Below, piece after piece: positions 1 to 64,000 of a stretch of 64,000 nt of DNA. The DNA is from Trichoplax sp. H2 (Eukaryota). The DNA lies in NCBI GenBank assembly GCA_003344405.1, contig NOWV01000165.1:62001-126000 (forward strand), in the 5' to 3' direction. Below the pieces are notes generated by a model, which saw only the letters and a program-made list of their open reading frames with translations, was not told the DNA's origin and searched no databases. Position 1 is the first letter of the stretch; every line of letters starts with the position of its first letter. The position numbers and the translations under genes are program-made.

Positions 1-1290
1 AATTTTTATCGTTGCCTTTTCTTTCGTATTTATCATTTTGGCTAAAACGGAGGTAAATCATTAATTATCAAACTTTAGCATATACTACGAATGAACCAAT
101 TCTAATCATATTTATATTACTTTATTGAATCGTAAAGTTAACGACTTCAACTGCAAATAATTATATAAATTACTGAAGAGAGCTACATATTAGTAGTGTA
201 TTTATTAGAACTTTGAATTTTATATAGGATGTTTTCAGCACTTTTCCACTAACTATGGTCAAAGTCTTGGTTATGATGGTTGGAGAATTAGATTATAATG
301 ATACGATCGTGAAAGCTATTTCCAGTGGCCGGATTAGCTATCCCAATAATATCTTGCTACTGCTTATGTTTGTCATATTTATATTCCTAATGCCGATTCT
401 GCTCATGAATTTGATGGTAATGCATATCAATGCACTCAATTGTGATTAATACTTGATGTATTGATAAATGTTACTGTTCATGTGCAAGCTATGGTAATCT
501 ACGAAATGAATTTTATATAGATTGGTTTGGCTATTGGAGATATCGATAAAATTCAAAAGAATGCTATTTTGGGACGTTTAGCAATACAGATTGATTTCTT
601 AGATGATCTGGAAAGATCGCTACCTACCTGGCTTAGAAAGAAACTTTACTCAAGTTCTGTTGTACGAAGACCTCATACATTTGGATATAAGGTAGCTTCA
701 GTAGCACGGCTTATAAATGCGAAGCGAATAACTAGGAAGTAATCTAAATTCTGTAATTTTAGTGTATTTAAGTAGAAAATGAAAACATGGTCTATGACTT
801 GTCATTAAAATTATTGAGTAATCCTCTAGAGTAAAAATTTATTGGAGTAACATCATAACTATCTTTGAGAGCAGTTCAAGCGTGAGTTAAATTACATTTC
901 TTTCTTTTCAGCTCTATTCAGTATTCTATGGCGATATAGCCCAACATGAAGACGATGATAATGAATTATGGGTGGAGGAATTTGAGAAACTTCATCGCGA
1001 AAGCGATTGGCAGAGAAAACAGTTCGTTCACTAAATTTGTAACAACACTAGAACTGCTACTTGCCTCAGTATGTATAATAAGTATCTTTATAAACACTTA
1101 ATCTAATATAACATACATTTTTCTTAGGATTAGAGCGCTATTTCATGAAATTGAAAAGATAACTATTGCATTAACGGATATCCAAAATAGTAATAGAAAT
1201 GATCAGATTTTGCCAGTTGCACAAGACCCTGCATCACTGGATAGCCATTTGGCAAGAGAAGATAATCTAGATAATACCTCACAATTTTAA
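1..1290 (+). CDS. TRPA1-like: Gene A: TRPA1-like channel, 3' part only (end of S5, pore, S6, TRP-like helix, coiled-coil tail); 5' part lies before the window
   Basis: GT-AG exons <1-52, 228-416, 521-691, 912-1021, 1128-1290 (TAA) splice in frame: IFIVAFSFVFIILAKTE / DVFSTFPLTMVKVLVMMVGELDY...MPILLMNLM / IGLAIGDIDKIQKNAILGRLAIQIDFLDDLERSLPTWLRKK. This matches the TRPA1 S6/TRP-like helix signature (MNLLIGLAVGDI...LEKKLP). Confidence 0.93.
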
Positions 1291-3038
1291 ATCAATTACA
1301 GACCATAACAAACAAGGGATGCTATTACCGCATAACTTTGCGTCTAAATTAGTAGGTTGATTCGAAAAATTTATTCTTATTCAAGTACACGATAAATATA
1401 GTTTAAAGTAGAAATTGCATTCATCTCTCATCTCTAACACTTCGTCTGCTAAAACTAACTTGAAAGTAGGATAATAACTTATTAGGACGGTAATGAATAT
1501 TGGTACGCTTCGTAAATATAAACTTAATTAATATTGGTTCTAATGTTGAATCTACTAAATAATTAGATATCAAACTAGTAGCAAAGATCAGATATCTATT
1601 TTAAATAAATCCTGTTCTACAAACATTATTTTTAACAAATGTATGTGGCCTATATTGCTCATAATGTATAATGAGAAAAATTAGCTAGTTATGATTATGT
1701 ATTGGTATTTAGCTTTATATTCTATCTCACAGATTACTTGTAACATTAACAATGCCTTTACTTCACATTACATATTTCAAAGAAGTAGAGACGATATTTC
1801 CATACTCATATATTAATTTAGTTAAAATGAGTTACAAACAGCGGTACATTGGCATACCTGTGCATGTTTTATATCATACAAAATTGATAAAAGCGACCAA
1901 TGTATTAACGGTCCATCATGCTAGGGCAAATGCTTACTTTCCTCTACCTCTAATCCAGTAATAAATGAACATAGTTATCGATAGAATATTTGAGTTAGCC
2001 TGATAGCTAATTGGCACGAAAAAGAAAGCATCTACAATTCATCAATTTTTTAATTATTATGCAACAGCGATTAAGTAGCTATAGCCCTGCAATTCTGTAT
2101 TTACAAGCGATATTTTTACAATTATTGTACATATCTATTATATGAAGGCTTATAATCAATACTAGGAATAAGTTACATATGCTCTAGTGCGTCCCAAGCA
2201 TATCGGTGGAGTATTGCGTACGGTAGTTATACTGCATTTATGCAGGATATCATGATATAAATATTTTTGATAGAAAAATTATAAAGTTAAGATTTGCCCC
2301 TGATTGATAATGAAAATCGTTTGATTATTAGCAGATATTGTAAACATTTAGACTACCAATCCTTTATAACGTTTAATGAGCTTGCTCATGTTGATTGGAT
2401 ATATAAGACCTCCATCATTTTTAGTAATTACATTAAATGAAGTTTCTGCAAGTTAAACTAATACACTCAATACCATAATAATTCTTGCATTCAGATTACG
2501 TAGGATGGATGAAAAACTGTAGATAAAGGTATATTGCCGATTTACCACATCTTTCAATAAAAATACCTTACTTACATAGTCGATCCTTGCTACTCTATGA
2601 TTCTACCTGTCTATTTCTAAAATGGAAGAATGCTATAAAGCATCAGCTTACTAGAAATTAGATATAACGATACTTAATAGACAGAGTCAAATTGTCTGCA
2701 TCATTACAATTAACAATCTGTTGACCATATTGCGACATGGAAATAATTCATTTATCTCTGTTGTTGCTATGGCTTAGGACAACAGATTGATTTATAATTG
2801 AATAGGGCTTTATTTTATCAGTATCATCCAAATAAAGCACGGGTTATATCAAGTGACCTTTTACGTCAGTCTGCAACCTTATGCATTATTTAGCAAAGTA
2901 AATTTGGATAATATTTTGGTGCAGTAAGAATGTAATATGACTATAGTTTACAATTTTAATTGGAATGCCATTAGAAGATCTTGTCGATGTCTGAAATTAA
3001 TCCATTCTTGAATCAGTCAAATCAACAGTAACAGTAAA

Positions 3039-6000
3039 ATGCCAAGAAAGCCTACAATTACTAGAAATGGGAGTATCTTTGATGCAGCAAAGGTGAATCC
3101 TGCTCATGACATAATTCAGGTAGGAAATCAATCATTTTTATGAGTAGTTAATGCAATCGTTTCGTATTAACATCATCACAATTCGCGATTGATCTTGATA
3201 CGTATAATCTAATCCTAGTGATAGCTATGTGTCTAATTAAATATCTTTGCTTAAATCTTTTTAGAATAAAGTTAGTAATATTTTCTCTATTATTCCTGTA
3301 ATTAAATTAATGTTCGCATACGAGATTTTATTGAGTAGTATTTTTAGCAGATTAAGCGCTACAGAACTGTCATAGTAATACACCTGATTACAGTTATCTT
3401 TTATTACACTATGAATCTACCAGGTGAAATTTTCCTATTTCAAATTGACTATAGTGCGCTATCTCCATATTATTAGTTTTACTTTTACTATGTAACGCTA
3501 ATTTTAATTAGTAATGGTGTTGATCACGTTGGATATTTACCATATTATACATTGAAAAGTAGCTATAATTTATTTAATAATTGTGTGTTGCTTAGCCAAT
3601 TCATCAAAAGTGGCTATTGTTCACATTTACGATGACATTTATCTGGAAAACAAAAATTAACCAATTGTATTAATCGAACTATATTTTTCTGCCTACTAGG
3701 CATCGAAAAATAGCGATATGCTGCTTTTACAGCACTATTTACCCCGCAGAGGTACAAATATCAGTAATAACTCTATTGACCGCAATCATTTATCATCGTT
3801 ACACTATGCTGCAAGAAACGATGACGTGGAAAGGATTGAAGCAATCATTTCTCATAGTTCAAGCGGTATGTCCAATTGGATACAGACTACTAAGACTTTG
3901 TTAACAGTTTTAGCATCAGTGTTCTTCTGCGTAATGATTTTACTGATTTCAATTTCACAACTTGTGCATTACCGTATAGTATAAATTACAAAAGATGCTA
4001 AAAATTTTAATGCAATTAAACTTAGAAACACCAAGTTGTAGTCCAACTATTGCATATTGTTATGTTTTTAGTAATGAGTTCACTCCGTGAGTAAGATTTG
4101 TAACTAATATTTATTATTGATGATCGGTATTTATAGCTACATCAGGTTACATATCAATACGATTACAATTTATACTTCCTACTACAATTAGTAAATTATC
4201 AGTCCGTCTTTTACAATGTTATCCCTTACAGTATTAATTGACCGTATCATCATGCGCCGATCAATTTATTAGACTTTTGGACGTCTTCGTATCAATATTA
4301 ACGTGACTTAACGTCACTTTTCTACAATGATGTTTTACTGATTCATAATAATTTGATGAATTGTATTAGATGTAAATATCAAAGGGCTCGATAACATGAC
4401 TCCATTACATTTAGCAGCTACATCTAATAAAGTTGCTGCTTTAAGGACGTTACAAATGTATAATGCAGATTCTTGTGCCCAAAATTCTGAAGGTAATATA
4501 CCACTACATTGTGCAGCAAAAGCAGGAAGTTTAGATGGTTGCAGGGTTAGTAACTCCTTTTACTGACACCCTCAAGTAAATTTATTTTTTTCTTGCCTAA
4601 AAAGGTGTAAATTTAACGGAAAAGTCTAAGTTTCTTATCGTTTACTCTTAAATTCATACCCAATTACTTTGTAAATAAGAGTAACAGTTTTGCTGACAGC
4701 ATTTAAATATTAGATTTAGCAAGTACGTATCTCGAACATGTTAGATAGATTTATATGTACGGAAGTAGAAAGATAAAGGAAACAAACATAAATAATAAAT
4801 TAAACTTTATTTAATGACAGCCTTTCATTTAATCACGCCTCTAAATGATAGTATTTGCTAAATACTTTTATATCGATTTTACTAGTAGTATCGCATCGCA
4901 TGTAAGATCAATCTCATCTAGGCATTCTAACTATTCTAAGATTTCGATTTTATTGATTGATACATAAAAGGTCTAAGAAAATAGAAATATCGGAGCTCAT
5001 TGTGTCGTAATGGATAGTAGCTAGCTAAGATTCCTTTTTAGTTAGTTAGTCGGTTGGATGGTCAACTAGTTTTTCAATTGATATTTAATTGTAAAGACTA
5101 TAATCTTGGGTGCCAAGATTCCTTCAGTAATAAATGATAGTAAATCTCTAACTATCTCGTCTACATCATCTGTGACGCTATAATTATACCATAGTATTCG
5201 GTCGTTAGAACTGAATTATTTGGTGATATAGCTAATCTTGCCTCTTTAAGTTAGCAAGTGGTGTTCTCCGCAAGGATTGGCGTGTGTAGACTACTTTGTC
5301 ACTAGTGGTGTGTGACACCACCTAAGTTAATAACAGATCTAGATCGTAATAACTGTTCAGTGCCCTCACTTTAAGTTATTGTTTCTTACAGATATTGCAA
5401 TTAGTCTATTTATCTTAGACTAATAACATCACTTATGAATTTCTATTACAGGAATTACTTAGCAAACAGCCATTTACGATAGATTGCATAAATAGAAACG
5501 AAGCAACGCCATTACATATGGCTTGTATCGGCGGTCATGCATCGGTTTGCCTAGAATTAGTAAGCTAAAAGTACCTTTGAAATTATAGAAAGAGGTCTCA
5601 CTTAGTTTTATTTTGTTTTAGCATAAAATGGTAACTAACCAATAGGAGTTTTACAGATTAATCGTGGGGCTGATATTATGGCTAAAACTGCTGATGGTAG
5701 TTTACCAATTCACATAGTAGCTAAGCAAGGTAATGTGGAAATTATGGAGCTATTACTTTCAGCTTACACAGCGAAATATTCTCGCCGAGAAGATTACATC
5801 ATGGAATGCAATTATGATGGTGCTTCAGTTTTACATCGAGCCGTACAAGGGCGTCAAGAAATGGTATAATCAATATTTCATTCTTTGCGACTTGCTTTTA
5901 TGTTATTATAGCAACATTAGCGAATTACTTCACTATTCATTTTTTCGTGGTCTTAAGTCTTTTCATTTCGATTAGATATAAGTTTATGCAATATTCTGAG

Positions 6001-9000
6001 TATTGTTTATTTATTCTTGCCATAACTGTTATATTATAACAAAAAGTGATAAAATGGATTTGCTGACTCATAACTTATCATCTATAAATCTTAAACATAC
6101 TCGATTAAATACGAGAATGGCAGCATCTACTACATTCCAGATAGAATACAGTGCATGTTCCTACTTTTTCCAACCGATTCTATACATAAGTACATTCTAT
6201 CATACAGTTAAATCAATTGCGATACTGTCAAATTATAAAATCCCTGTACTCCATCATATCGATAAAATCTTATATTTAAAACAGCTAATAGCTTTCCTAC
6301 GTAAATAATTTTAGGCTATTCAGTTTTGCTTAGACAATGGTGCAGATACTTCTGTTCGTGATGTAAGTTCAAGAAATCTGTAGTTGCTATCGGACTCATT
6401 TTGTTATCCTAATGATAGACTTATTTGCAAAAAATAGCAAATTAACGCGTATCTGATAATTGCCTACTAAAATATTTAGATATAGATTCTTTGGATTAAT
6501 TAGGGACTTCTTTTCTTCCATATCATTAATTAGAAGCGTGGATTTACTCCTTTACACTATGCCGCAATCAGTAATCACAGCTCATTAATGCAACTACTAA
6601 TACAAACAAAACCTGCAATCGATGCACGCGATGATGATCACCGAACCCCATTACACCAAGCAGCAATATTTAGTTTTATCGACATTATGGAAATATTAAT
6701 CAAGGCGGTAGGTATTTAAAATCAAGCAGAATCCTTGGCATATTAATTGCGCTATTTGGTATAGTATTGGACTTCGTATATTCTCTTTGTGTATGTGAGC
6801 CAAAAAACTTCTGGATTCCTTTATTTTTATAATATAGTAGAATAGATTTCTATTTGATCACAAGTGACCGCGTAAATGATTTCTCCTAATGAAGTAGCGT
6901 GGAATTAGATTCTAGCTTAATTTCAGACCATTATCTTCTTATATGTATTGAATTGATGTACTTTAAACTGTTTATGGCAACTAATGCTAAAAAATTTTGT
7001 AAACAGTCATTTAATGATATCCTAATTCAGTAGTCTGCTCTTATTTTGTTAGGGAGCTAGTATCGATGCTAGTGACAAAGAACAAAATACACCATTGCTC
7101 CTAGCTGCTTATAGAAATAAGATTGAAGCAGTACAATATCTAATCGACCTCCATTGCAATATTCACGCTAATGATATTAAAGGAAGAAATTGTCTGCACT
7201 TAGCTATTGCCGGAAGCAACGATGAATTGGAGTTACTAAATTATTTATTATCAGTAAATCGATATCTAGTTATCCTAATGTTCTCGATGCTGCCTAAGCA
7301 ATTCTAATTACAGCATATGTAAACATTTGGGGAAAGATGTCTACTATTAAAGAAAATAGTCATGGTGTAATCTATCATCTCTATTTTAGATTTATAAAGT
7401 ACCATATCTTGAATCAACTGATAACTACGGGAAAACTCCGTTACATTATGCTTGCCAAGATGGAAAATACAAGGTATGTTCATTTCAGAAATTTTCTAGT
7501 GTATCAATTTTTAAATTTTATTCTAAGTGAGCCGTTAAAAATTCGCTTAATGATGGCTATGGCTAACCATTTATTATGACAGATTGTTAATTTACTATTA
7601 AAGTATGAAATAAATGTTTACCTGGTCGATCAAGATGGCAATAACTGCTTCCATTTAGCATGCAAGTAAGTTTATTATAAGTAATAAGTAGCTGTTAATG
7701 CTATGATAATTGTGTTACGTATCTTAAGATTTAATGTAATCATTAAAATAATATAGGAATAGTTATCCTGATATTGCAGAGCTGCTATTAAACCATTCAG
7801 CTGGTCTATTGAATAGTGAAAATGCAGATAACTGCAATGGCTTGCATATCTCCGTGATTAAAGGATGTCCTAGTACCGTTAGATTGCTACTTCAACATGG
7901 GGCTGAAATTGATCGAAGGTTAAACCAAGAAAATTTAGCTTAGCAACTTTGTGCTTACTATTCGTAATTTTAATCTTATCGATTATTTTTGTGATAGAAA
8001 TGCTAGCTATAGCACGCCACTAGATACAGCTCGTATGAATGGTTCTCACCAGATTGTTCAATTATTAATTGATCATGGTGCAGCTCTCAATACATTAAAT
8101 CGATCTGGGGTACAAATTGTTTAAACAACAATAATTACAGGGCGATCGATAATCCAGTTCTGTATTCTACAACTGTATATTGCTAAACTGATAATTTACA
8201 AACATAAATTTTCTCGTATTCCCGGATATTTCTTTTAGGAATCAGCATTGCACATTGCAGCAAGACATGGCAAAGCAGATATTGTTAAACTTTTATTAAA
8301 TTGTGGAGCGGACTGCACAATTGAAAATAACCGTCAAAAAAATAGTCTAGAGATTGCAATCCAGCACGATCAACAAGGTGTAGCCATTGAAATTGCCACC
8401 AAGCCCAAGTAAGAAATTATAGAAATAAACGTAGGAATTGATTTTGCCGAAGATTTGAACACATCATCATCTCTTCTATATAAGCAAATAAATTTAGTAT
8501 CAAATTCTAGTAAATAAAATTAAATAGGAGCAATTTTTTCAGCACCAGAATTGATTTTGCTAAAGATCTAAGTGTATAAGCAGCTTATGCTAATGTAGCT
8601 ATTTGATTTATTAATAAATTTCAGTAAATATATTTAAAAATAAGTAATCCATCTGGTGTAGTTATAGATGGTACTTAAGCATCTACGTAGACCATCAACT
8701 CATCCAAGATAACTGTATAAATAAAAGTGCCATCGAACTTCAGCATGTATAATCAATATTGAACTGGTTTAGTTTTAGGAATGACTTTGCTAACAATTCC
8801 GAGAGAATAACAAGTTCACATATCTGCAGTGTTTGACTTTGCTATCTAATATAAAGGAAACAAGTATTGCATATTCATTTAATGGTCAGAATTAATTTCT
8901 CTACTATACTTCACAAATAAGCAAACCAGTTAAATTTTAGCCGTATACTGATTTTATTCCATCACCTGCCATTTCTAACTAATGGAAACGCAAGGTATAT

Positions 9001-12000
9001 TTGAACTTTGCTACTGTAAGTGACCTACTGCCTACTCAATCATCAGATTTCCAAAGTCTCATGGTCAAATTAAATTTTAGATCTATAGGATGACATTCAA
9101 TTATATTACAATTCTTATTCATTTATCCCGTAGCAAGATGAAAGGGAACCCGTTCTGCTAAGTGTAATTAGTGTGTAGATCATGCAAAGAAATTTATAAC
9201 AGCGGATTTTATTACTGATTCTCTACCGATTGAGATACCGTACTATGTAAAAGTAAAACAAGCTCTGGCAAGTAATGAAAACTTCTTACAATAGTAGATC
9301 ATAGGAATAAAGGACAAAAAACTATAATAACAGAAAAACTTAGATACGTAAATATGTTATCTAACTTGTTTACAATATGACTATGGCGAACAACATCATT
9401 AAACACTTATGGAACTTAATATGAGAATAAAATTCTATGATTAGTATTACACTCTACGAAGCTGAAATCAATATATTTGAATCATCACAAATGTTACTTA
9501 AATATACCCTATTATTGTCAACAACCTAAGATTTTGGTATTATTTTTAAGTTATGCCTAATTTACTTCTACATAAAATTTGACAACATTAGCTTGTCTAA
9601 TAACTTCACTACACAGGAATATAAATTCTACTACATAATGAGATTATGTAATATTTCTTTTACCGTATATGTTTACACCAATTTCTAGGTCTTATTTTCT
9701 TGTTCTTGTTAATAGAAATCGCGATCTTTTGCTTAAAGTTGGTAAAGAGAACATAACAACAATGCAATCAATTATCCAAAAGATGCCAAAAGTTGCTTCG
9801 GTTAGTTAGAATCGTCACCAGCTTAAATATTTTCTTTTATAGCACATATACCGTACATATAACCTAGACCAAGTTAGTTAAGAAGGATCCCTACTATCGG
9901 CAATTTTTACGAATTTTTTTCCATCAGCTCAATTTTAAAGCATCAATCTATACTTTTTCAAACCTAAAATATTTCATCAACTTTATACATCGCATTATTT
10001 CGATATTGTATCCCACTATGTAGGAAGTGATGAATACCTGCATTAAGAAATCGTCAACATTTGATCGCGAAGGCAAGAATATCTATACAGTGAGTTAATT
10101 TCATTATTTTGGCTGTTTTTCCTTTAGAGTAGAAAAGATAGGATGGAGAAATATACTTTAAGAATAATTTAGAGAATGAAATAAAAAGACCGCATTAAAC
10201 TAGATACCAATGATAACCTTAAACTGAATATGTTCTTATTCTCTATAAGCTAATGAGAAGTAAACTGCATGGTAGCTAATGACAACTCAAATTTCATATA
10301 GCGCTATCATTTTATATTTATGAAATTATAGATAGAATATGATTTTACTCTGCTTGAACCTGGAGAGGAATTGGAAGAGATGTACAATTTACCCAAAGGA
10401 ATACATAACTTAAATGCACTAACAGTAACGTATCAGCATATAGAATTATTTCGTAGAATAGCGACAAGAATATGATGATAAACCGTCAGAACGACTAGTC
10501 GTCTCTCACAGCATGCTAGCTAGAACGATCAGCGTAACTTTAGTCATATCATAATTGGTTTTTGCGTATACTTTTGCAACTAAGCCACTTCTACAATTTA
10601 GAATTTGACACTATTTAAACTATATACGATTTTCAATGTGCAGAAAAATGACTGTTTAAAATTTCCTACCCGTATTTATTACCTATAGTCTACTAATACG
10701 ACAACATCAAGTTTTATTAATAAGCTTAGCTTATAACAAAAACTTGAAGCGTAAGGAAAAGCTTTCCCAGTACAAAGCATTTCTTAGCAAGATGAGAGTT
10801 TAATTTATTTCGAAAGGAATTAATATGACAATTAATACCAGTTTTACGTTCTTTGTACAAGATTTGTGAAATCGTTATAGCTATATTTAGTCCATTAGCC
10901 TAATTATCTCATATATTATCTTATCACTATTGCAACAGACAATCGTCTCATCTAATCACGTCGGTCTCCTCGAACATCCACTTTCTGCAAGATTGTTAGA
11001 TACTAAATGGTTAATTTACTATGCTTGTAATCTGTTATTGATCATCTAATATAGTGATATTGACGTTGTTGGTTTAATACGTGATCCGTCATCAATCTTA
11101 GGTCGCATTTTGGTCGAAGAGTCTACGTATTCAACTTAATGATTTATATCTTATTCATCGTGGCTTTGACAGCTTATGTCCTCAATATTGAAGATTATTT
11201 TAATTCAGCTTATAGTAAAGTCCACTTAATAGGACTTCAGCCGTCGAATGCTTTTTCAGGAAATGCCAAACCCGCTAGTCGTTCAATATCTGCCTTTTCT
11301 AATTCAACCAGTAATGGTACCGTAATTGATGTAAGCGAAAAGAGTAGAAATGTTATACTGTTTTTACTATTTTAGTAACTACTCGGCAACATATCTTTAC
11401 AGTCATCAAATCTTTACAATCTTTATTAATAGCTACAATTTAAATGTATTTAACCGAAATTTAAAATATCCAACTTATTAGGATATTGCGAGAAACCATT
11501 CATCAATTCCTATTCTTAAAGCTCTTATTCTAGTATTTTCGATCGTCAATTTGATTCGTGAGATTTTTCAGCTCTATCACGAGGTAAAGTAATCTATCAC
11601 CAAATCACTAGTATTGAAAACGTACTCCCTTTCCTAAGTAGTTTATCGGTCTATCCGTCACTTTTTCTCGTATTATTCACTATTATTTACTATTTTAAGT
11701 CACCTTGACTTAATCGACGAATTAATCTACTTTGATACCTCTAGAAGTGGAAATATTTCCTTTCCTATGAGAATTATTTTGAAATCGCTTTGCATACCAG
11801 TGTAATTGCCTTTGCCGTAGGTCCCGGAACAAGTTCTTATTTTTGGGCAATTGGAACATTTTCTGTTCAATTAGCATACATAGAATTAGTGATGTTCTTA
11901 AGAAAGTATGTTGGATTGTTAATCTAATTTAACCACCATCTTAGACATCTCACGGTTAATGCATATATACATGGGATAATTATCAGTAATATTTTGTATT

Positions 12001-14068: not shown

Positions 14069-15544
14069 TAATTCAATCATTAAAAGTACCGAATAGAATA
14101 GCAAAATGAAAATAGGATTGAAATACTTATTACGACTTCTGCTTCTTTAAGTTATTACGTATACCAGGTTAATAGGAAAATTATGAATATTTATATTATT
14201 GCAGTATTAAAATTTATAAAGCTGGCTTCAAATAATCTACCTAGAATAAAGGACTACTAGAAATATATCGACGTTTATAGCATTCCATTAAACCTACTGG
14301 AAAATTATTAATGCTTAAATACTTTTAATACAGTATAGTCCAAGTAATTTATTGCTAGTGTGCTGAATTTCTGAGCTATCTTTTAATTAAGAAATATCTA
14401 TGGATATTAATGCGAATAATATAAATTCGAAAGCTGTGATAGTCTATTTACCGGTGTTTACGCAAAATTCATTTATGCTTTGCCTTAAAATATCCCTTCA
14501 TAATAGTCTCTTATCGTAAAAAATAAATTAATCCACTTGTGAAGCAATCTGATTCAAGGTCATGTGTTCATTTTCAATATGAATGTATCTTCCTAATTTG
14601 TCATTAGTTGTAATGAACAAAATGGGCATTTTTCTATTGATTAGTGGTGAACAAGGGTAAGCTGTCGTAAAGTAAAATGAGAAATACTAACACTGCAACT
14701 ATTACGACTAAAGAAGCAAATGATCAAAATCGTCATCTAAAACCAGTATCTATTAATACTTATTTTAAAACAATTTATGGTCCGTACCATCGTCGCATAA
14801 CTTGCGAATATGTCCGTTCCTGAACCAATTAGAAATGAGATAAGACGTGAAATGCATGATCTAATGACTATTAATTAGTCAAAGCAAAATTCATGTTTCA
14901 ATCTGAAGCAACAGTGTTAACATTTTACTTCTAACTTTCACATCATTTGATTTTCAATCAGAACTTGCTTGGCCAAATTATTAAGGACACCAGTGAAGAG
15001 CGTGCAGATATAGTTTGCTAGCCTAAAATACATAACGAGCGTATTTCATGTTCATGCGACAGTAATAGTGATAATATTTTTGTTATATAGCTATAATCTC
15101 GAAATTAACAGCAACATCATTACTTACATATAAAGTGGAACGTAGTAACTGTTATTACTAGTTATTACTATGCGTTGAGATTGATATGATACTTATAATT
15201 TAGTATATTGCCTGAGTGTACAGTGCACATGCAGTAGTTAGAAAGCGACAGCGGCCCACGGTTAGTACTGTACAATGTAATCCAATTCTGGTTGGTTACA
15301 ATACTTGAAATGTTTTAACTAACAGTATATAGCATATATATAATTGTAGCCCATCAAAATTATATTATAATTCTACTGCAACCTACCAGTACATTATCTA
15401 TAAATAGTTTAGGATAATATCACCTGTTTGCACTACCAAGACAGAAATATCTGTGGTTAGAAAGCAGTTGCACTTATTATAGAACGATCATCTATTTTAC
15501 TATTTGAGATCATAAACAATTATACTAGCAATAAAAAGCAGCAT

Positions 15545-29250: not shown

Positions 29251-29271
29251 GAGCTAATTTCGACGTCATAG
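29251..29271. promoter_or_regulatory. Conserved upstream 21-mer with a CRE-like core, upstream of gene D
   Basis: Identical to 15545-15565. Confidence 0.4.
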
Positions 29272-50700: not shown

Positions 50701-53394
50701 CGATCCTGGTCTTTTACATCCTTCAAATAGAAAGACTGAACCAAAGTACCGCACACAAGATTATATTCTTGGGATTTACAAGTATTTCATCAACTCAAAC
50801 AACAACTACTACAGCTTCTTCCTCCTGTAACTTTAGTCACACTGCCAACCAGCAACATAAAGTAAATTATGCGTTATTTTGAATTTTAATAGCTATAATA
50901 TATTTAATCTTATAGCAAATGCCTTTAAATATTATTAAATATATTGTACCTAAAGATATATCTAGTTTCAATCCTATCGAATCTTATTATGATGCAACGA
51001 ATTGAAATACTCTTTATTTTTCAATGTATCCAGAACGGATTAGTATTTCACAAAGATATCCATTCACTAGTTGTATGGAAAGTCGTTATCTATATCTTCG
51101 CTATAATCAATATTTGCCGAGAGCTTTATCAACTATATCATGAGGTAATTTGCTAAGAATGGTTTTACCGTTTTGATAGCTTTAAGGGTTGTGACTGTAT
51201 TGCCTTAAGCCGCTTATTTGATTGCTAGATATCAATTTGTCGATCTTATACTGATTTGCAATTACACCATAACTAACGACCAAGAACGTTATAACTATTT
51301 TAATACTATATTTTTTATTAGAGAATTCGATATCTTTTGTCATTTGAAAACTACCTGGAGTTATTTTTACACAGCGCCATTTTAGCATTTGTAGCTAATC
51401 CCGACTACTCATTTAATACAATCTCTTGGGCTTTGGAAAGTTTAGTTATTCAAATATCATTTATAGATTTAATTTTGTTCTTAAGAAAGTAAGCCAGCTG
51501 ACAAAACAAATTATTTTCGTACAAATCATTCAAAATAATCATTTTTACTGGAATAGAACGAATAATTGTTATACATTAATATTACCCCCTGACTCATTCA
51601 TTAGGTTACCAATTATAGGAAAATATGTGTTGATGATGCACCAAATGATTTGGACAGCAGCGAAGGTTTTCATTGATAAATAAAACGAATGAATATGATG
51701 GATTATCAATCTATGTACAGTGCTCGTATACAGTCTGAGGCCTAATTAAAACCATATTATTCATTTAAAGGCCACAAACGCCTAATCTTATATTATAAAC
51801 TGTACAAATTGTATTCTTTCTTGGATATTCCTATATAATAGGTCATGGTAATCATGATCTTCCTGCTATTCGGATTTGCGATAAGTTTTTATACGCTCTG
51901 CTATCGCCAGGTCGGAAAATTAAAGATTTACGCTTAACTGACAAAAATAATAATTTTACTTATAGCCATTAGCTGATAATCAAATATTAAATAAAGATAA
52001 AAACATAGTTCAGCTTACCCTTACTACCCAACAGTTATCATTGTAAGACTTGCAAACATTAAGAATTTTAAAACATTGAAAGATTGAACAGTTGCTATAG
52101 AATATCTATTTATCAATATGCAATGATGCAGTGTTATGAATATTATTAAAATGTTTTATTTATGTGTATTAAAATTTTAGATGTCTTTCTATTCCATGTC
52201 CCTATCATTTGTCAAAGTAATTGACATGCTGGTCGGAGAACTGAACTATAGTAGTCTTTTGGAAGCCATTCGTAAAGGCAGCATCGCTTATCCTGATGCA
52301 TATATGCTGCTTTTTCTAATAATTATCTTCATTTTCTTCATACCGATCATCATGATGAATCTACTGGTAACTTTTATGTAGCCTAGTTAAAATTGTAAAA
52401 TAACGTTACTATAGCCTAGTAAATACATATATTCTATCTAAATATTTTACATAATATTACTTGAGCAGTTATTATAGAATAAACATTGCACTTATGAAAT
52501 ATAGTGATAGGATCTTCATCCATTCATCACTGTTATACCGTCTTTATTCCACTCTATCAGCCATTACTCACATTAAAAAAAATTTATGTTCATAGAATAA
52601 ACGTGGAATATTTTCGTTAGTTTGAACTGAATAAATTAACGATTATTAGTCAGTTTTAGCTACCTATTACTATTAGCTAAATACAAACTAGCTAACGGAT
52701 ATTCTTATCAAATTCACTATGTAGTCGCTTATTGAAATAGATCAAATAATGATTACTCTCTAATTGGATAACATAGATCGGCTTAGCCGTTGGCGATATA
52801 ACTGAAATGGAAAAGGAAGCTAGTTTGCGGCGACTAGCTGATTTAGCTGATTTCTTTTATAATATTGATAGAGCTTTAATACCTCGCTTTCGTCACTATT
52901 ATGCTATTAATAAGATCAAGTGTAAAGAATTTGGCAATATTGTAAGTCATAATCATTCATATATTTAGAAGTAATTATGATCACTCAAAACAGTATATCA
53001 TGGTTGCTAAATTCTAGTGGTAGTCATAGGTTAGAATGTTTGAGATAGCACATTACTGAAGATTTATCATCATCTTAAAAAATAATTATTCGGATGCTTG
53101 ATAATGATCTCATTAACGCTAGAATATGCTTAGAAATGGCGCAAAAGAGCAAAAACAGGCTAAAATTATCAGTGATACAAAAGTAAATTCTGGGATGCAG
53201 ACACAGTCTTTACGGTAATATTTCTCATCATACTTCTGGTTGATAATTTCAAGTAATATTTATTCAATCTTGCTATATTTTGTACAAACTTTTTATATTT
53301 TAGGCTTGATGCATTGCAAGATAGATTGAGGCTTATGCAGTATAGTCTTGAGAAGGCTTTACATCAATCGCCAAATGAGTCTCCTTCGAAATAG
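41733..53394 (+). CDS. TRPA1-like: Gene E: complete TRPA1-like channel, 26 exons; closest paralog of gene F; two GC-AG introns
   Basis: Exons 41733-41822, 41992-42154 (GC donor), 42304-42479 (GC donor), 43507-43614, 43755-43961, 44163-44210, 45859-46032, 46793-46990, 47072-47155, 47394-47476, 48324-48485, 48596-48707, 48844-49013, 49560-49644, 49849-49914, 50140-50232, 50471-50541, 50642-50861, 51034-51144, 51322-51488, 51605-51665, 51842-51910, 52181-52366, 52777-52941, 53123-53214, 53304-53394 (TAG). Pore IDMLVGELNY; S6 MMNLLIGLAVGDI. The start codon and exon 25 boundaries are less certain. Confidence 0.88.
42570..43190. repeat. Degenerate tandem repeat (about 6 units of roughly 70-150 bp) in gene E intron 3
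   Basis: The core ttaattagtgaycGTTTCAATTTTGAAGCTTTcc...gagtatttac...gactaattcataa recurs near 42588, 42704, 42791, 42942, 43046 and 43118. It is absent from the paralogous gene F intron. Confidence 0.85.
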
Positions 53395-56090: not shown

Positions 56091-59000
56091 ATGCTGCGAT
56101 CTACATCATTACTAAATAATACTAAAGCTCCTTCGTCTTATTATACTCCACATGTAAGTTTTTACTGCAAAAGTATCCATTGATATAACCTATCGAACTT
56201 TTATTTGCAAATTATACAATTATACACGCATAAAGTCAATTTAGCCTATTAACTATCCTGCAAAGTACAACTAAGATTATGTTACAAAAAGTGAAGATTT
56301 GATATATAGTAAACCATTGTCACGCATTTTATGTGGATTACAATCACTTTAGATACCTACAATTAACGATCAACCATTCTTACGACATGGAATACCTGAG
56401 CAAGTAGTCCCACATCTGATAAATCAGCTAAGTTCAGATGAATTATCTCCTCTTCATTGTGCAGCTAAAAATGATGATGTAGAGATAATAGAATCTTTAA
56501 TTGAACGTGAAGCCAGTAAGTTAACCTATTGGATAGTACGTTAATTTCAATATTGGAGTATGTGTCTTCAAGTAATCTTTGTTTTTACTTACTAAACTTG
56601 AAAATCCAAATAATCAACTTAACTAATTCATTTTATTGAATTGATTTTTTAGATGTTAACATGCCTGGCTTAGATAATATGACACCATTGCATTTGGCTG
56701 CCAGACACAATAAATTGTTAGCTGTTCAAGCGCTTCTCTCTCATGGTGCTAATGCTCAAGCTCAAGACGTCAATTTGGACACTCCACTACATTATGCTGC
56801 TAGAGCCGGTCATCTAGAAATATGCGAGGCAAGTTAATCTAGTTAATGGTCAAAGCAATAGGAGAATTCTACTTTATTCTCTGGATGGTTACATGTTAAG
56901 AACTGATTGCAATTTACAATGGTTATTAATATGTGCCTAACTAATTTCAATCTCAACAGCTACGTATTTTACAACAGTCATTGTATCTAAACTGCAGCAT
57001 TAATTCTAAATATCTGATGATAGTGCTATCACTTTTAAGATCATTTGATCAATTTTATATTAATATGCAATAAAATTTTCAAAGCATTCGTCACGTAGCA
57101 TCTTTTAAAATATTTCGATTAACATTGCAATTTAACCTTATCGGTCATAGACGATAATACAAGAGAATCTAACAGTTTTAAATTTTCACACCAAATTAAA
57201 AATAGATCTATGGAGCATTCCTGAATATTTAGTTTGAAAAATTTTGTCATAGTATTATAATTAGCCACTACGCAATAATCTACGTAGTTCGTAAACGAGA
57301 AAATTTTTTACGGAAATATTAATTTTGCAGTATGTTTCACAGGCGTTAATCAATAGACGACCATTTATGATAGATGAGCAAAATAAAGATAAACTAACGC
57401 CATTGCTTTTGGCCTGCAATTACGACAAAGATTCCATTTTCAAGTATTTAGTAAGTTGACCATTTAAAGTAACAACGTACTGGCCGGCATCGATTTCATC
57501 CACAAGCAGGAGGATTAATACATCTATTGCAATCGAAATATTTCGATGCCCGTTTTCCCAATTTTATTTTTATTTCACAGGTCGATAGAGGTGCTGATAT
57601 CATGGTAAAAGCTGCAGATGGCAGTTTACCAATTCACATTGCAGCTAGTAAAGGCAAAACAGAATTAATGGAATACCTATTAACTAACGGAGAGGACAGA
57701 TTTATCAAGCGTAAAGAACAAATCTCTAATTGTAATTATAGCGGAGCGTCAGTACTACATCGGGCAGTTGAAAGTGGTCAAGAGAAGGTACATCCATCAC
57801 CCTGAATTTAACCATATAATGGAGTACATTTTAATATGTATTGATATACTCGAAAGCATTAACAGTAAATTAACGTTGTAGGAAAAATTAGACTAAAAAT
57901 AACCCTCCAATTTCATACCCTAAATTCCATACTAAAATTGATAGCTGTAATAATATCTTCTTTAAGTAGCGTTAAGTATTTTAAGGTAGACGATGATAAA
58001 AGGTATAAAGGATTTTATTGAGATACAAGTTATAGGCTAACAATGATATGGTTGTTATAGACAAGGTATTTGAGATAGCAGGAACGTAGGAACTGACTAG
58101 CGAGTTAGCGTACAAGGGTATTTATAGGTTTTAGATGAGATTGAGATAATATCTTTATATGTATAGCATGTCGTCTATATGTCGTCATGATGTCGTACAT
58201 TATGAATGTAATACAATGCAGTACTTAAACGGCATATGATAAGTATTCGTATATTAGGATATTACTATACTAGGCATCTTCTATATAAGATCATAATGTT
58301 ACAATAGCTAACAAATAATTCTTATCTAATTTATTTAGGCTACGATACTCTGCTTAGATATCAATCCTGATATTTCTGTTAGAGATGTAGGTATTGGCTG
58401 TCTGATAATGTAGCTTAATGCAAAATGTTAAATAGTTATCAAATGAAGTTCAACGTTATCTATAAATGTTATGATGTACATGCAATTCTTCACGTTCTCT
58501 TAAATAAACCATCAAGTATTTTAAAATAAAGATATCGCTATCGAGATTAATTTCGTGATTAATGTTTCTATTGTGATAAGGTCTCATTTATCTAATTTTT
58601 GCGTAAAAACTGTTATTATTGTATATATTAGACAAATGGACTAACCCCGTTACATGCTGCAGCCATCAGTGGTGAAGATTCTATATGCAAAATTCTATTA
58701 GAGAGAAAGCCTACCGTTGATATGCGAGATAATCATGATCGTACGCCTTTATTTTATGCTGCATCGTTAAATCATTTGAGCATCATTGAAACCCTCATCG
58801 ATGCTGTAAGTCTGATTCTTTTCATGAATATTATGATATTTGTAAACAGAAAGATATTGCAGTCAATAGCTAGGCTGAATTATAGATAATATAAAGAAGT
58901 TTGACCTAAGACGTTTGAGGTACATAGCACAATCCTCATTTACCATCGATATTGAAGAAATTATACCAATTATCAATTAATTAATAGCTCAATGAATTCA

Positions 59001-60381
59001 TTCTTGAACTGTATTTTAATAATCATTAAATTCATATTCCTGAATATTGCATTTAGTTTCGAGAAGTATCTAGTGGCTTGCTTCCAAATTTAAATTACAG
59101 CAAAGCGATAATGTGCAATATTCATATCTTTTGAAAATTTCTAAAATTTTATTAAGAAAAATAAATCCTTTTATGGCACGCTATCCTTAGTCTCCATAAA
59201 AGTGCACAAGTTTTGAATCATTTTACCTGTATCTCTAATATATAAGAGTTCAACATAGATAGCTTATTGCAGTCTAATAGTATTTTCGGATCTGGTTGCT
59301 TCCTTATTTTTTTGGAGTTTGATCGACATCCAGCGATTTCTATACACGAAGGAAATTATTTTCGAAATTTACTAGTCGACTGTTACTTGTGATACATGCT
59401 TTTACGGTAGTAATAATCTACTTTTTTAGTAGTGTATACCTATTAATTTGCAAATGATTAAATCTGTATAGCATATGCATCCGCATTACAACGGGATATA
59501 AGAAATATTCTAAGATTACTGGAATATTCTCATAACGTTTAAAACTAAGAAAACCGATGTCCAAGTAAATACAATAAACTTTAAATTTTAATAGGGCGCA
59601 AATATTGACGAAAGTGATTGCAATCAATTAACACCTTTTCTATGTGCCATAATTCACAATCATTTATCAACAGTCCAGTTACTGATCGGCCGCAATTGCC
59701 AAGTTAACGTCGTCGATACGTCTGGCAGAAATTGTTATCATCTTGCTGTTATATATGATAAAGATTTACGTTTGCTAGAGTATTTCCTAGAGGTAAATTT
59801 CATGATAAATTAAACTTATTATAGATGCTGCCTAAAGTATCAACTGTTCAAAAATTAATTATTTATATGCTAGAACGTGGATCATTCACTTACTAAAGCT
59901 GTGGATGAGCATCAGAGAACACCGATATTTTATGCTTGTAGAAGGGGAAAGGCTGAGGTTATCGATTTTTCAGTACCATATTAAATTAAGTAATAGTAAT
60001 CATATATCAATTCTTAATTACTCTAAAGTATATTAAATAGTACTGGAGATAAATTGCGGATCATGCCAAATATTGCAACTAAATATATTTATTAATACTG
60101 AATTGAGCTAAGATTATATAAAACTTAACATTTGTTTCTAATTTTTGCATTAGGTCTTGAAGTTATTACTGAACTATGATCCAGGCTTGAATACTATCGA
60201 TGAAGATGGCAATAACTGTTTACATTTTTCCTGCATGTAAGCCCTATGTCAGTAATATGATTAAATTTTGCTTCATTAAAAGCTACTATATAAGGTAAAT
60301 GTTAATATGTTATTTGACCATAATTAGTACTGGTACCTGTAGTATATAAGATTCTATATAGATGTTAGCTTAAAACTGTGG

Positions 60382-60417
<36 letters not shown>

Positions 60418-63400
60418 ATATATATAATGATAGATAGTCTTTTTTAGTAATTTATACCTTGCCTCGTGCCATTAGTACTTAAATAATTTTTCATCAACTA
60501 TTATGATGCAGAATTATTATATTTCGGTTTACAAGCATAATATCCGCTGGTATTTCTATCTCAAAGAAATAAATTCCTATGCCTTCCAATTCATTTCTTA
60601 GTTGCTATTACAGCTACTATATACTGATTTATATCCCTAACATTACACGATTGACAGTATGCAATACAAAACCTATTTTCTCGTTAAAATGCATCGTATT
60701 TATCTCTAAGCTTTTCAATCTAATTCTTCTAATTTATCGAATGCTCTCTCACAGTACTATAGAAATAGAGTTTAGAACAAAATCACTTCAAAGATTATAT
60801 CTAATCATAAATTGCTAACGTTAACGGGTATCTAGTCATACTTGTAAGAAAGCTTTTACAGCAACTTATACGGGCTATGATACCATATTTTTTTTGAGTG
60901 AAGTAGCACTTGTAAATCAGTTAACATATCTTCACTAAGCTTAAATTTATGGTTCTTGTAGTTAACTGCCGTCATCAATTTCCTTTACCATATAAAAGCA
61001 GTCCCATCATAATTCTCTTTATATAGGGAAGATTGTGTCGAAATTCTGACGATGTTACTTCAGCATTCACCTCATTTACTGTGCAGCGAGGGAGAAAATT
61101 GCACTACTCTATTACATATTGCCGTCATGAATAGCTGTCCTAATAATGCTCAATTATTACTAGAACAAGGAGCTGATATTAATCGAAGGTCGTTGATTTT
61201 AAACTACACTATCAATAATAATATTACCTGCTCTTAAATTTACTACCCGTGTAATGATTAAAAATAAAACCATTACTCTTAATTTATATCATTAGAGATT
61301 GCTGTTACGAAACACCATTAGATATTGCTTGCATAAAAGGCAATACTCGAATTATTCAGATGTTAATCAATTATGGAGCTGCAGTTAACTCTATCAATCA
61401 ATTCGAGGTAGCATATAGAAAAACCTATATAATACTTATCGTAAATAACGTGTTGCAACGTACTTTGACCTAGTAGCTATTTCTAATATGGTATGCGATC
61501 TATAAATGTCACTTACTCTAAGGTATTTCTAAATACTAATATGTAGGAATCAGCTTTACATATAGCCGCTCACTATGGTCGAGCCGAAATAGCCAATCTG
61601 TTAATGGATCACGGAGCAAATGCTAAGATTGAGAATTGTTATGGTAAAAACTGTTTGGAAGTAGCTATTGAAAATGGTCAAGTGGACGTAGCTATTACAA
61701 TTGCGATAAGGCCTTGGTAACTGATAGAATTACGATACTCAGTTGTAAGACTAAATTCATAGTCATTTTCTAGTTTTTCTTAAATTTATGGCAAATCTTA
61801 TAAATATCTTTACAAATTTACTGTCGAGTTTTAAAAGATAGCAATATTATTTGCTGCTAAATGAAATAAACCTGCCTTGTCTTACTAGAAACCACTAGAT
61901 AGATCACTTTTCTGCAGTTAATACAGCGTCAATTAAAACACTAAAATAAGCGTTTAGCCAAACTGTTAGCTATATTTTTTATTTACCTTGTTGAATATGA
62001 ATTACTACCATTGTTCCGTGATCAATACAGATTTTCTTTCAGAGTATAACTAAAATCCAAGATTCTTCAGCCAATGCATTCATAGTTTTTTTAGATTGCA
62101 GTAATCAGTAAAAAACGATAGATTTAAATTAGACTATGGTTGCTCAGAATTGAAAAGTTTTAATTGACAGACTATATCAACTATTTACACGTAGATGTAA
62201 TAACGTACATAATTTCGTAATAATTGTTAAATATTTTATAATTACGGTATTGTCTATAGCAATCATGATATGTTACTTAAAGTTGGAGATGATAGAATAA
62301 CAACAATGCAATCTATTGTGAAATGGAATTCCAAAGTTGCCTGGGTTAGTAAAATTTATATTTTTCATAAGCATATGATACAGTTAATCAAAGAGTAAAT
62401 AATACCATTTCGGCCGGTAACGAACTGAATTCAATAAACTCGAGGACCTCTACCATAAATAAATGCTTCCTTTATTAATCTATCACCGTAAGAATACTTA
62501 AAATTCAGACTTTCGATTAATAGTCTTGCACAATTATTTGTCATAGGCGATTATGGATAGCTATATAACGAAAACTACATTGATAGGGAATCATAATATG
62601 AATATGGTAAGCTATTTATTATTGTATCGATACAAGTAGACATTCAGTACATTATCTCATGATTTAGCGCTCTTACAAATTACTAGTAAATAACAAGAAC
62701 CATTTGAGCTTAGAATTATGAAATAACAGTCAATTAACAATTATTGCTATAGGTCAAATACGATTTCTCAATAATAGATCCGGGCATTGAGTTTGAAAAA
62801 AATCATAACCCTGACAATGGGATTGGTAGTTTCAATGCCGTAAAGGTAAAAATTAGAACATGCTAGCATTCTATGCTATTATCTGAAATATTTCGCCCTT
62901 AAATCCTTATTGAAGGTATTATAACGCATAAATATCGATACCTGTATCAATAAAGATATTCAGAATAAGATCTGGCTAACGATACAGTATCATATCTAAA
63001 CATTTAAACTATATTTAACTTTATTGCTAATACAGGTATAAGTATCCAGCTTCATTTTTTTTCTTCACTAGACAATTGCATCATCAAAAGATATTAGCTT
63101 ACTTGAGCATCCATTGACGGCTAAATTTTTGGATACAAAATGGTAAGCTTACATTATTACGTGCGAATCAATGAAACATGGACCTCTTGCTCTTCAACTT
63201 CAATCCTTATAGACAATCTTTCCCTCATTCAGGTCAAAGTATGGCCGCTATATTTATACTGCTAACCTGGCTGTCTACACGATTTTTATTCTCATTCTAA
63301 TCATTTATATCCTCGAAGTAGAAAGGCTTTATCAACATTTAACAAGTAATATAGTCTTTCTAGGGTTTACACGCCCAACAGATCAACCAGCATCTTCTTC

Positions 63401-64000
63401 ACTTCTTTTCTCAAATCAGACTGACAATGACCATCATAAGGTAAATTGTGACTTTAAATTTCCAGCTAATTACATAAATCTTAGAAATCATCCTTAAACA
63501 TTATCAAGCAGATAATTTGGGGATATTTAATATATTTAATCATGATGAATCCTACAATTGTATCATGAATTAAAGTATTTATCTCCAATATATCAAAGCC
63601 TGGCTTAAATTTTAGAAACATCTACAATTCGCTAAGCGTCATACGAGTGTTTATTGCAATTTTTTCCGCAATCAATATCTGTCGTGAACTTTTCCAATTA
63701 TATCATGAGGTAATTCGCCAAAATCATTTCATAATGTTAAGTAATAATGCTTGAGTTGCCTTACGGCTCATACCTACGGGAGGCAACTTAATATGTAATA
63801 ATAAATGATTAGAGCTACCAGTCTAGAGATTCTTGTAAGTATTTTCCTTTCAAAATTACTTATAGAGAATTCGGTACCTTTTATCGTGTGAAAACTATCT
63901 AGAGCTGATATTACATAGCGCCGTTTTAGCAATTATTAGCAACTCCAATCATTCAGATGGAACAGCTCTTTGGGCCCTAGGAGCCTTAACTATTCAGATA
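56091..64000 (+). CDS. TRPA1-like: Gene F: TRPA1-like channel, exons 1-20 (ankyrin repeats through S4), continuing beyond the window
   Basis: Exons 56091-56153, 56353-56515, 56653-56828 (GC donor), 57343-57450, 57581-57787, 58339-58386, 58632-58805, 59595-59792, 59874-59957, 60154-60236, 61027-61188, 61296-61407, 61547-61716, 62260-62344, 62547-62606, 62753-62845, 63072-63142, 63233-63440, 63599-63709, 63866->64000. Collinear with gene E; pre-S1 LLEHPLTAKFLDTKW. The start is uncertain because the frame is open upstream to an AG at 56021. Confidence 0.88.
60386..60427. repeat. (TA)n microsatellite in gene F intron 10
   Basis: About 14 uninterrupted TA units at 60386-60414 plus a short interrupted extension. 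Confidence 0.95.

Follow-up and report, generated by a model that had tools for sequence, protein, structure and literature searches.

A tandem array of TRPA-family channel genes in the neuron-less placozoan Trichoplax sp. H2

Introduction

Although it has no neurons, Trichoplax is capable of thermotaxis and of behaviour guided by chemicals. The locus analysed here carries a row of large, putatively sensory channel genes. The locus is a 64,000-nucleotide stretch of Trichoplax sp. H2 DNA (the whole of it is called “the window” below), part of a 177,176-bp contig. It is occupied by six genes, A to F, all on the plus strand, whose identification as TRPA-family channels is well supported by sequence comparison and structure prediction. 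We consider it highly probable that they belong to a head-to-tail array which arose by repeated local tandem duplication within the placozoan lineage.

The array and its six genes

The origin of the DNA is fixed by gene C, which with the public exon set reproduces, by spliced alignment on 15501–28900, the NCBI protein P0001 (1126 aa) letter for letter (numbers beginning with P denote the proteins compared). The host is thus the neuron-less placozoan that an initial annotation, made from the bare sequence, had considered as a possibility. The contig is also the source of P0002, P0137 and P0164, and three of these four proteins carry the NCBI name “TRPA1 [Trichoplax sp. H2]”.

The same annotation had described six same-strand genes of one architecture, running off both ends of the window with no other recognisable gene between them, and this is what we find. 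Pfam, run on 103 plus-strand stop-to-stop open reading frames (ORFs) of at least 57 aa, marks runs of ankyrin exons, each of five closing with an Ion_trans exon, while a sixth ankyrin run leaves the window at its 3′ end; the spliced models agree with this pattern. Single Ion_trans exons score 15.5–28.2 bits against a cut-off of 25, with 28.2 bits for the one at 228–446 in gene A. Genes B, C, D and E are complete (26 exons, 1072–1083 aa), and A and F are truncated by the window start and the window end, respectively, so the array continues past both. The four spacers measured (B–C, C–D, D–E and E–F) are 1030–2696 bp long. None of the 94 off-exon ORFs (at least 50 aa, both strands) reaches the Pfam cut-off, two sub-threshold rows being at chance level, and there are no Rfam matches and no tRNAs in the window. 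The NCBIfam scan was uninformative, giving ankyrin-driven sub-threshold matches only (TIGR00870 “trp”, 23–48 bits against a cut-off of 499).

Gene models were built by dynamic-programming spliced alignment of protein to genome, first with P0001 as reference and then with a 26-exon version of gene C, GC donors being permitted; the gene ends were modelled with the public fragments P0171, P0164 and P0002 and the paralog P0137. The resulting features are as follows.

1–1290, plus strand: gene A, 3′ part (end of S5, pore, S6, TRP-like helix and C-terminal helix), from spliced alignment to P0137, P0136 and P0212; exons 2–52 (cut), 228–416, 521–691, 912–1025
1159–1290, plus strand: gene A, last exon, tentative
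3039–14068, plus strand: gene B, complete, 26 exons, 1079 aa; exons 3039–3119, 3700–3865, 4370–4545, 5452–5559, 5657–5863, 6315–6362, 6534–6707, 7053–7253, 7390–7473, 7583–7665, 7757–7918, 7998–8109, 8239–8408, 9716–9800, 10024–10089, 10332–10424, 10939–11009, 11102–11330, 11482–11583, 11745–11905, 12041–12101, 12277–12345, 12708–12896, 13408–13575, 13754–13860, 14002–14068
16132–28480, plus strand: gene C, complete, 26 exons, 1077 aa (P0001 minus its extra 27th exon); exons 16132–16218, 16638–16800, 16961–17136, 17629–17736, 17841–18047, 18182–18229, 18450–18623, 20773–20952, 21089–21172, 21275–21357, 21606–21767, 21908–22019, 22268–22437, 22851–22935, 23119–23184, 23447–23539, 24292–24362, 24510–24750, 26574–26675, 26798–26958, 27163–27223, 27372–27440, 27624–27812, 27895–28062, 28215–28318, 28411–28480
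29702–40702, plus strand: gene D (sister of C by a recent split), complete, 26 exons, 1072 aa; exons 29702–29788, 30230–30392, 30552–30727, 31314–31421, 31526–31732, 32466–32513, 33246–33419, 33707–33886, 34021–34104, 34202–34284, 34542–34703, 34856–34967, 35227–35396, 36330–36414, 36583–36648, 36916–37008, 37671–37741, 37892–38132, 38367–38468, 38599–38759, 38986–39046, 39203–39271, 39455–39643, 39721–39888, 40463–40566, 40648–40702
41733–53394, plus strand: gene E, complete, 26 exons, 1083 aa; exons 41733–41822, 41992–42154, 42304–42479, 43507–43614, 43755–43961, 44163–44210, 45859–46032, 46793–46990, 47072–47155, 47394–47476, 48324–48485, 48596–48707, 48844–49013, 49560–49644, 49849–49914, 50140–50232, 50471–50541, 50642–50861, 51034–51144, 51322–51488, 51605–51665, 51842–51910, 52181–52366, 52777–52941, 53123–53214, 53304–53394
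56091–64000, plus strand: gene F, exons 1–20, 837 aa so far, cut inside exon 20; exons 56091–56153, 56353–56515, 56653–56828, 57343–57450, 57581–57787, 58339–58386, 58632–58805, 59595–59792, 59874–59957, 60154–60236, 61027–61188, 61296–61407, 61547–61716, 62260–62344, 62547–62606, 62753–62845, 63072–63142, 63233–63440, 63599–63709, 63866–64000
228–446, 12708–12908, 27618–27839, 39449–39685 and 52181–52378, plus strand: Ion_trans pore exons (Pfam on ORFs)

Length is invariant across B–F for thirteen exons, and across B–E for two more (21 and 22). Where exon lengths do differ, they do so by multiples of three, so that the copies share the phase of each of the 25 introns, in keeping with the shared intron positions and phases, and the 26 exons where a gene is complete, that had been noticed at the outset. 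The copies thus show one orientation, adjacency and a common exon structure, and C and D, like E and F, are closest relatives as well as neighbours, which is the pattern of a tandem array.

Family assignment

The TRPA family carries an N-terminal ankyrin domain of about 14–17 repeats ahead of the channel domain. The same order is seen here: Pfam Ank matches fall on exons that precede each pore exon, with 10 Ank_2 stretches in P0001 and 7 in P0137, and on whole proteins Ion_trans scores well above its cut-off (P0001, 40.5 bits; P0137, 39.7; P0164, 37.9). Residues 51–725 of P0137 are collinear with residues 56–736 of human TRPA1 in one stretch (E 9e-115), from which it follows that its ankyrin domain is of about human length. 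The best structure-chain matches of P0171, a protein resembling the C-terminal half of gene B, are nine distinct TRPA1 chains from Drosophila and human (E 6e-38 to 7e-34), after which comes TRPV1 at 5.7e-6.

Structure prediction points the same way. The AlphaFold2 model of P0164 (gene E from exon 12 on; 30-row alignment) has a mean predicted local distance difference test score (pLDDT) of 81.8 and a predicted template modelling score (pTM) of 0.72, and when it is searched with Foldseek against the PDB, ranks 1–16 are all TRPA1 (E 1.7e-19 to 1.6e-14; TM-score 0.54–0.65), followed by TRPV5, TRPV3 and TRPV6 from 2e-12. The transmembrane (TM) region is modelled with long helices at 209–255 and 294–495, and the blocks of pore and S6 can be aligned to those of TRPA1. 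In known TRPA1 structures S6 is followed by a TRP-like helix, the coupling region contains a small beta-sheet and the C-terminus forms a coiled-coil helix; in the P0164 monomer model a helix at 498–523 follows S6, strands lie at 134–138, 162–168 and 536–542, and a further helix spans 545–596, of which 545–564 is below pLDDT 50.

The genes had been called “TRPA1-like” in the initial annotation. This name stands, on both sequence and fold matches; TRPA1 orthology, however, is not shown by the trees described below, and to name A–F TRPA1 orthologs is not justified on the sequences compared.

Integrity of the copies and selection

The six models contain no internal stop and no frameshift, as had been reported for the exons first traced, and each coding sequence is divisible by three. 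Of 119 introns, all have AG acceptors, 115 have GT donors and four have GC donors, each in the context G|GCAAGT: intron 11 of D (34704; donor AAG|GCAAGT, with GT at the counterpart in C), introns 2 and 3 of E (42155 and 42480) and intron 3 of F (56829). The introns of B are all GT-AG, with an ATG start and a TAA stop. Several models close only when GC donors are permitted, and models aligned to P0001 alone under a GT-only donor rule were rejected; they contained spurious micro-exons of 2–35 nt and one read-through stop in D, both of which trace to a duplicated exon 7 in P0001 and to the GC donors.

Selection was estimated from pairwise Nei–Gojobori (NG86) ratios of nonsynonymous to synonymous divergence (dN/dS), with a codon bootstrap of 1000 replicates. 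The ratio is 0.285 for C/D (dN 0.118, dS 0.412; bootstrap 95% 0.23–0.35) and 0.195 for E/F (dN 0.171, dS 0.876; bootstrap 95% 0.15–0.24), and none of the 1000 replicates exceeds 0.44. Ratios near 1, which the initial annotation had named as an outcome that would speak against its proposal, are therefore absent, and the codon comparisons indicate that both young pairs are under purifying selection. In the older pairs the ratio is 0.17–0.22, at saturated dS. Split by domain, C/D gives 0.24 for the ankyrin part, 0.14 for the linker, 0.34 for the TM region and 0.62 for the C-terminal tail.

These figures bear directly on the rival that comes closest to the preferred account, namely that the array is real and several of its copies are in decay or no longer expressed, being young pseudogenes or duplicates that are not transcribed, which leaves an effective repertoire far below six. 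We regard this as distinctly unlikely. D, E and F do hold four non-GT donors between them; the stop of D (TAA, 40700–40702) comes six codons before that of C, which has a proline codon there; F has no methionine at the position of E's first, so that its predicted start is the second methionine, nine codons downstream (56091); and its exon 15 is 60 nt long against 66 nt in the other copies. The fragmentary public models of B, E and F (P0171, P0164 and P0002) could likewise reflect weak transcript support. Yet B–E keep about 3.2 kb of open frame through 26 exons, and F 2.5 kb through 20, without a stop or a frameshift; the GC donors are all of the strong form, and the one at intron 3, common to E and F, must be older than their split (dS 0.88); the young-pair ratios lie at 0.15–0.35; and the residues of pore and gate (A–E) and of the Ca2+ site (B–F) are intact.

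Origin of the array

Protein identity is 78.3% for C/D, 71.4% for E/F and 44–48% for the remaining pairs among B–F, and A is 34–38% identical to B–E over 156–162 aa. The nearest relative of A is P0137 (54% identity over 166 tree columns, 59% in tblastn high-scoring segment pairs, HSPs), which is a separate gene, with no match of at least 90% in the window. C and D align by blastn nearly end to end (15390–28614 against 29109–40853), and the match takes in 5470 of C's 9115 intron bases and 840 of its 1551 flank bases; between E and F the intron alignment comes to 1007 of 8410 bases, and in the older pairs to 3–31 bases. The nested relatedness first proposed for the array is confirmed here, both in the alignable introns and flanks of C/D, for which the blastn coordinates agree with those given before, and in E/F as a second pair. 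A had also been thought the most canonical copy, and this finds no support: compared over the 154–172 aligned residues that A has in the window, it is 30–37% identical to five non-placozoan TRPA1s, against 25–36% for B–E.

Trees were inferred with IQ-TREE under LG+C20 from the channel half of the proteins only (about 476–488 kept columns). The rows, 37–58 in number, were picked by hand from a pool of 355 proteins; seven rows were left out as redundant, P0065 was without a TM match, and the set was reduced from 58 to 37 rows for a careful search. In a representative search, with P0001, most of the 150 matches listed are ankyrin-repeat proteins of 1500–6500 aa, and about 20 are usable TRPA channels.

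A clade of A–F, P0137, P0136, P0255 and P0269 is recovered in all three trees (P0269 in the two that include it), with support of 99 in the Shimodaira–Hasegawa-like approximate likelihood ratio test (SH-aLRT) at 50 rows, 99 at 58 rows, where the tree is rooted on ray TRPN1, and an ultrafast bootstrap (UFBoot) of 100 with SH-aLRT 99 at 37 rows. Its stem is long (0.50–0.56). Within the clade, A pairs with P0137 (98/89) and the rest, {P0136, P0269, B–F, P0255}, form one group (99/97), in which B–F and P0255 are joined with 100/100, as are (C, D) and (E, F); the latter pair has P0255 as its sister (99/95), and the position of B is weakly supported (61/26). Named non-placozoan sequences fall inside the clade in none of the three trees, and in the 58-row tree bilaterian TRPA1 proper (vertebrate, insect, Octopus, Owenia, Lineus and Amphiura) makes a group of its own, supported by 99, with the array clade outside it. 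The paralogs thus do not scatter over old TRPA clades, which the initial annotation had named as another outcome that would speak against its proposal.

The clade is one part of a larger set. At least five further H2 proteins named TRPA1 are found on four other contigs (P0269; P0273 and P0233, on one contig; P0309; P0331), which together with the six window genes and P0137 gives at least twelve TRPA-like genes in the H2 genome. P0137, which NCBI names TRPA1 as well, and these five are 1010–1154 aa long and have ankyrin repeats, Ion_trans being precomputed for four of them and not listed for P0273 and P0233. P0233 with P0273, and P0309 with P0331, lie outside the array clade in the 58-row tree, and judged from these sequences the H2 complement includes at least three old lineages, one of which has expanded into the array.

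Taken together, the single orientation, the short spacers, the identical 26 exons, the sister neighbours and an intron similarity that decays with divergence point to serial unequal crossing-over. The chromosomal order A, B, C–D, E–F also follows the branching of the tree, as would be expected under serial tandem duplication, and with the single clade this supports the earlier proposal of serial duplication in one lineage. Repeated local duplication of the unequal crossing-over type, within placozoans, would then have generated the array.

The alternative that the six genes are old TRPA paralogs which predate placozoans and are merely still clustered seems to us very unlikely, more so than the decay of several copies. 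It can draw on the saturated dS between A, B, C/D and E/F, which makes the older splits ancient in absolute terms, on the weak support of deep TRPA nodes, and on the other H2 genes in separate old clades (P0233 with P0273; P0309 with P0331). It is opposed by the complete lack of named non-placozoan members of the clade in the three trees, by the long and strongly supported stem (99 to 100/99) and by an exon structure that is identical across copies. An origin of the repeats in faulty assembly, through haplotypes left uncollapsed or contigs joined wrongly, can practically be dismissed, for although two 20-N gaps enclose a piece that repeats exon 7 of C almost exactly, so that local redundancy exists, the redundant-looking DNA is this 628-bp piece only, and the closest pair differs at 22% of residues (dS 0.41) and pairs other than E/F at more than 50%, far past allelic divergence.

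Several points nevertheless weigh against duplication within placozoans as the whole account of a functional array. The sister group of the clade differs between trees: basal TRPA channels of anthozoans, oyster, sea urchin and hemichordate in two (SH-aLRT 89 at 58 rows, 23/84 at 37 rows), and TRPA1 proper in another run (52). The outgroup branch is very long (8.16 in the 58-row tree), and the trees cover a hand-picked 37–58 of the 355 proteins by their channel half. P0269, an H2 gene on another contig (586,970 bp), is a member, so the clade is not confined to the array, and as P0136 and P0255 may stem from other hosts, “placozoan-only” is not strictly shown. Pairwise dN/dS below 1 expresses constraint averaged since the split and is no proof that both members function today; the copies are known here from genomic sequence alone, and the residue roles used below are taken over from the TRPA1 literature. 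Finally, there are the irregularities of single copies, a GC donor and an earlier stop in D, two GC donors in E, and a downstream methionine and a 60-nt exon 15 in F, although each of these appears compatible with function.

Predicted channel function

For the functional residues we use human numbering, anchored on chain 6pqq (PDB title: C621S mutant), and take human Cys621, Cys641, Cys665 and Lys710 to be the electrophile-sensing residues, with Cys621 and Cys665 as the main sensors. Compared with human TRPA1, the Cys621 column has threonine in B–F, P0137 and P0269 and serine in P0136; the Cys641 column has cysteine in B, C and D and tyrosine in E and F; and no copy compared (B–F; the region of A lies outside the window) has a cysteine in the Cys665 column. 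Lys710 is kept in all copies scored (B–F). The copies are thus probably without the classical electrophile route, as far as residue identities can tell.

Other parts of the channel are conserved. E788, Q791, N805 and E808, which we assume to form the cytoplasmic Ca2+ site, have equivalents in B–F, in the motifs RE..(F/Y)Q and ENY(F/L)E. The selectivity filter reads GE(I/L)(D/N)Y in A–E (the pore of F lies beyond the window), so that D915, presumably the acidic filter residue, is replaced conservatively by glutamate, as in Drosophila, and the S6/TRP-like motif MNL(M/L)IGLA(V/I)GDI is kept. From this we infer working cation channels with Ca2+ modulation, minus the classical electrophile switch.

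The fastest-evolving part is the extracellular S1–S2 loop, encoded by exon 18. It is rich in serine, threonine and asparagine, variable in length (63–71 residues) and longer than the human TRPA1 loop, and carries 1–3 N-x-S/T sequons; identity in it is 35/71 for C/D and 31/62 for E/F, against 78% and 71% overall.

11102–11330, plus strand: exon 18 (S1–S2 loop) of gene B
24510–24750, plus strand: exon 18 of gene C
37892–38132, plus strand: exon 18 of gene D
50642–50861, plus strand: exon 18 of gene E
63233–63440, plus strand: exon 18 of gene F

Each predicted subunit would therefore present, from the N-terminus, an ankyrin domain, a pre-S1 coupling region, six TM helices and a pore loop whose filter residue is acidic, together with the conserved S6 and TRP-like motif, the cytoplasmic Ca2+ site and a long C-terminal helix. 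By analogy with the family, such subunits would assemble into tetramers and form Ca2+-permeable non-selective cation channels. The role that we find most likely, by inference from the family, is that of differently tuned polymodal (thermal, chemical or mechanical) sensors in epithelial or peptidergic cells; that the copies form heterotetramers is a guess.

A bolder extension would be that in neuron-less placozoans the sensing of temperature and chemicals relies largely on a TRPA radiation of their own (at least 7 tandem genes on this contig, out of at least 12 TRPA-like genes genome-wide) that dropped the electrophile cysteines and diversified the S1–S2 loop, with partition among cell types or heterotetramers yielding a combinatorial code. 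We hold this to be unlikely, though somewhat less so than the rivals weighed above. If it were true, the radiation would add a missing sensor class to pre-neuronal sensing, as the Trichoplax TRP catalogue in common use contains no TRPA.

Comparison with known TRPA channels

Human TRPA1 (PDB 6V9V and 6PQQ) and Drosophila TRPA1 (7YKR) have the same domain order and size as the window genes, and bilaterian TRPA1 shares with them the IGLAVGDI motif, the long C-terminal helix, the Ca2+-site residues and Lys710. Unlike bilaterian TRPA1, however, the window genes form a separate clade and are many tandem copies rather than one gene, and over their full length they are only 23–27% identical to three vertebrate and one insect TRPA1.

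A class of “TRPA1-like” or basal TRPA channels in cnidarians, lophotrochozoans and ambulacrarians is named in the accessible part of a review, citing Himmel & Cox 2020, which for the basal subfamily lists cnidarians, ecdysozoans and lophotrochozoans and, in that part, does not list placozoans (PMC11526382). Like the window clade in the 58-row tree, these uncharacterised channels stand outside the TRPA1 clade proper. Mollusc TRPA expansions offer a parallel to the array: eight TRPA1-like genes are given for the abalone Haliotis discus hannai, and oysters and a scallop are named as well, in a 2026 TRP survey (PMC12980990), and among the matches listed a single 94-Mb record carries several TRPA1-like proteins of Ostrea edulis. 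The likeness lies in multiple TRPA1-like paralogs within one phylum, read as sensory adaptation; in the present case the host is nerve-less, and the tandem layout, the common 26 exons and the selection regime are shown directly.

For placozoans themselves, the T. adhaerens set in supplement 2 of the same survey counts 7 TRPs, with 0 for TRPA (PMC12980990), and a thermotaxis study names, in its accessible passages, only TRPM, TRPML, TRPP and TRPV homologues for T. adhaerens (PMC10498350). Najle et al. 2023 have TrpA1 among the genes queried, and in their supplement 4 the orthogroup containing Drosophila TrpA1, OG_16, is an ankyrin catch-all with many placozoan genes (PMC10580291). No account of such an array in placozoans turned up in a full-text literature search, whose scope excluded Himmel & Cox 2020 and Peng et al. 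2015, two papers that may bear on the point. The array also goes against a recent review's suggestion that large TRP genes may have little tendency to duplicate in tandem (PMC11526382).

At least one placozoan thus appears, from its genomic sequence, to have a large, intact and selectively maintained TRPA repertoire. The genes were already in GenBank as TRPA1, and TRPA expansions were known from other phyla, so the array extends known biology and introduces no new principle. Its value lies in candidate sensors in a nerve-less animal and in a correction to TRP catalogues and public gene models, and the corrected 26-exon models supply definite targets for mapping expression and for assays in heterologous systems.

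Public gene models and local repeats

Public models were found for B, C, E and F of this region, those of B, E and F being fragments (517, 605 and 808 aa). P0171 (B-like C-terminal half, 517 aa; 9651–14065) differs from the window at a few residues, so that a near relative, T. adhaerens for example, may be its source. P0164 (E, 605 aa; 48582–53391) covers exon 12 onward and aligns over its full length, its long HSPs being 92–100% identical; it begins within intron 11, and its exon 16 acceptor is placed 45 nt upstream (50095), adding 15 residues that are absent from every paralog. P0002 (F, 808 aa; 57367–64000) begins in exon 4 and omits exon 6; its residues 1–679 map inside the window and the rest beyond.

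P0001 has 27 GT-AG exons, with exon 7 extended to 18627 and an extra exon at 19050–19192, and consequently an internal repeat of 47 aa derived from a gap-flanked second exon 7. The window is AT-rich all along (G+C fraction 0.29–0.33) and holds two 20-N runs (18991–19010 and 19639–19658), between which this second copy lies.

19011–19638, plus strand: 628-bp piece between the two 20-N gaps, with a second C exon 7 at 19019–19192 (from the N runs and alignment)
15561–15811, no strand: tandem repeat some 320 bp before the start codon of C, unit 131 bp, 1.9 copies, 84% matches (Tandem Repeats Finder, score 369)

Copy b of exon 7 (19019–19192) differs from copy a (18450–18623) at one base in the exon, and the flanking intron sequence is common to both. 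The second copy is probably assembly redundancy; alternatively, if real, it would be a very recent duplication of a 174-nt in-frame exon. The 131-bp repeat upstream of C is apparently present as one copy in D, and it accounts for the overlap in the C/D blastn matches at 15390–15655 and 15692–17179.

Finally, divergence between C and D is mosaic: dS is 0.86–0.87 at codons 601–800, against 0.22–0.44 in most 100-codon windows, and blastn identity is 69% over 22658–24666 against 36139–38048, compared with 71–78% elsewhere. This pattern may reflect partial gene conversion after an older split.

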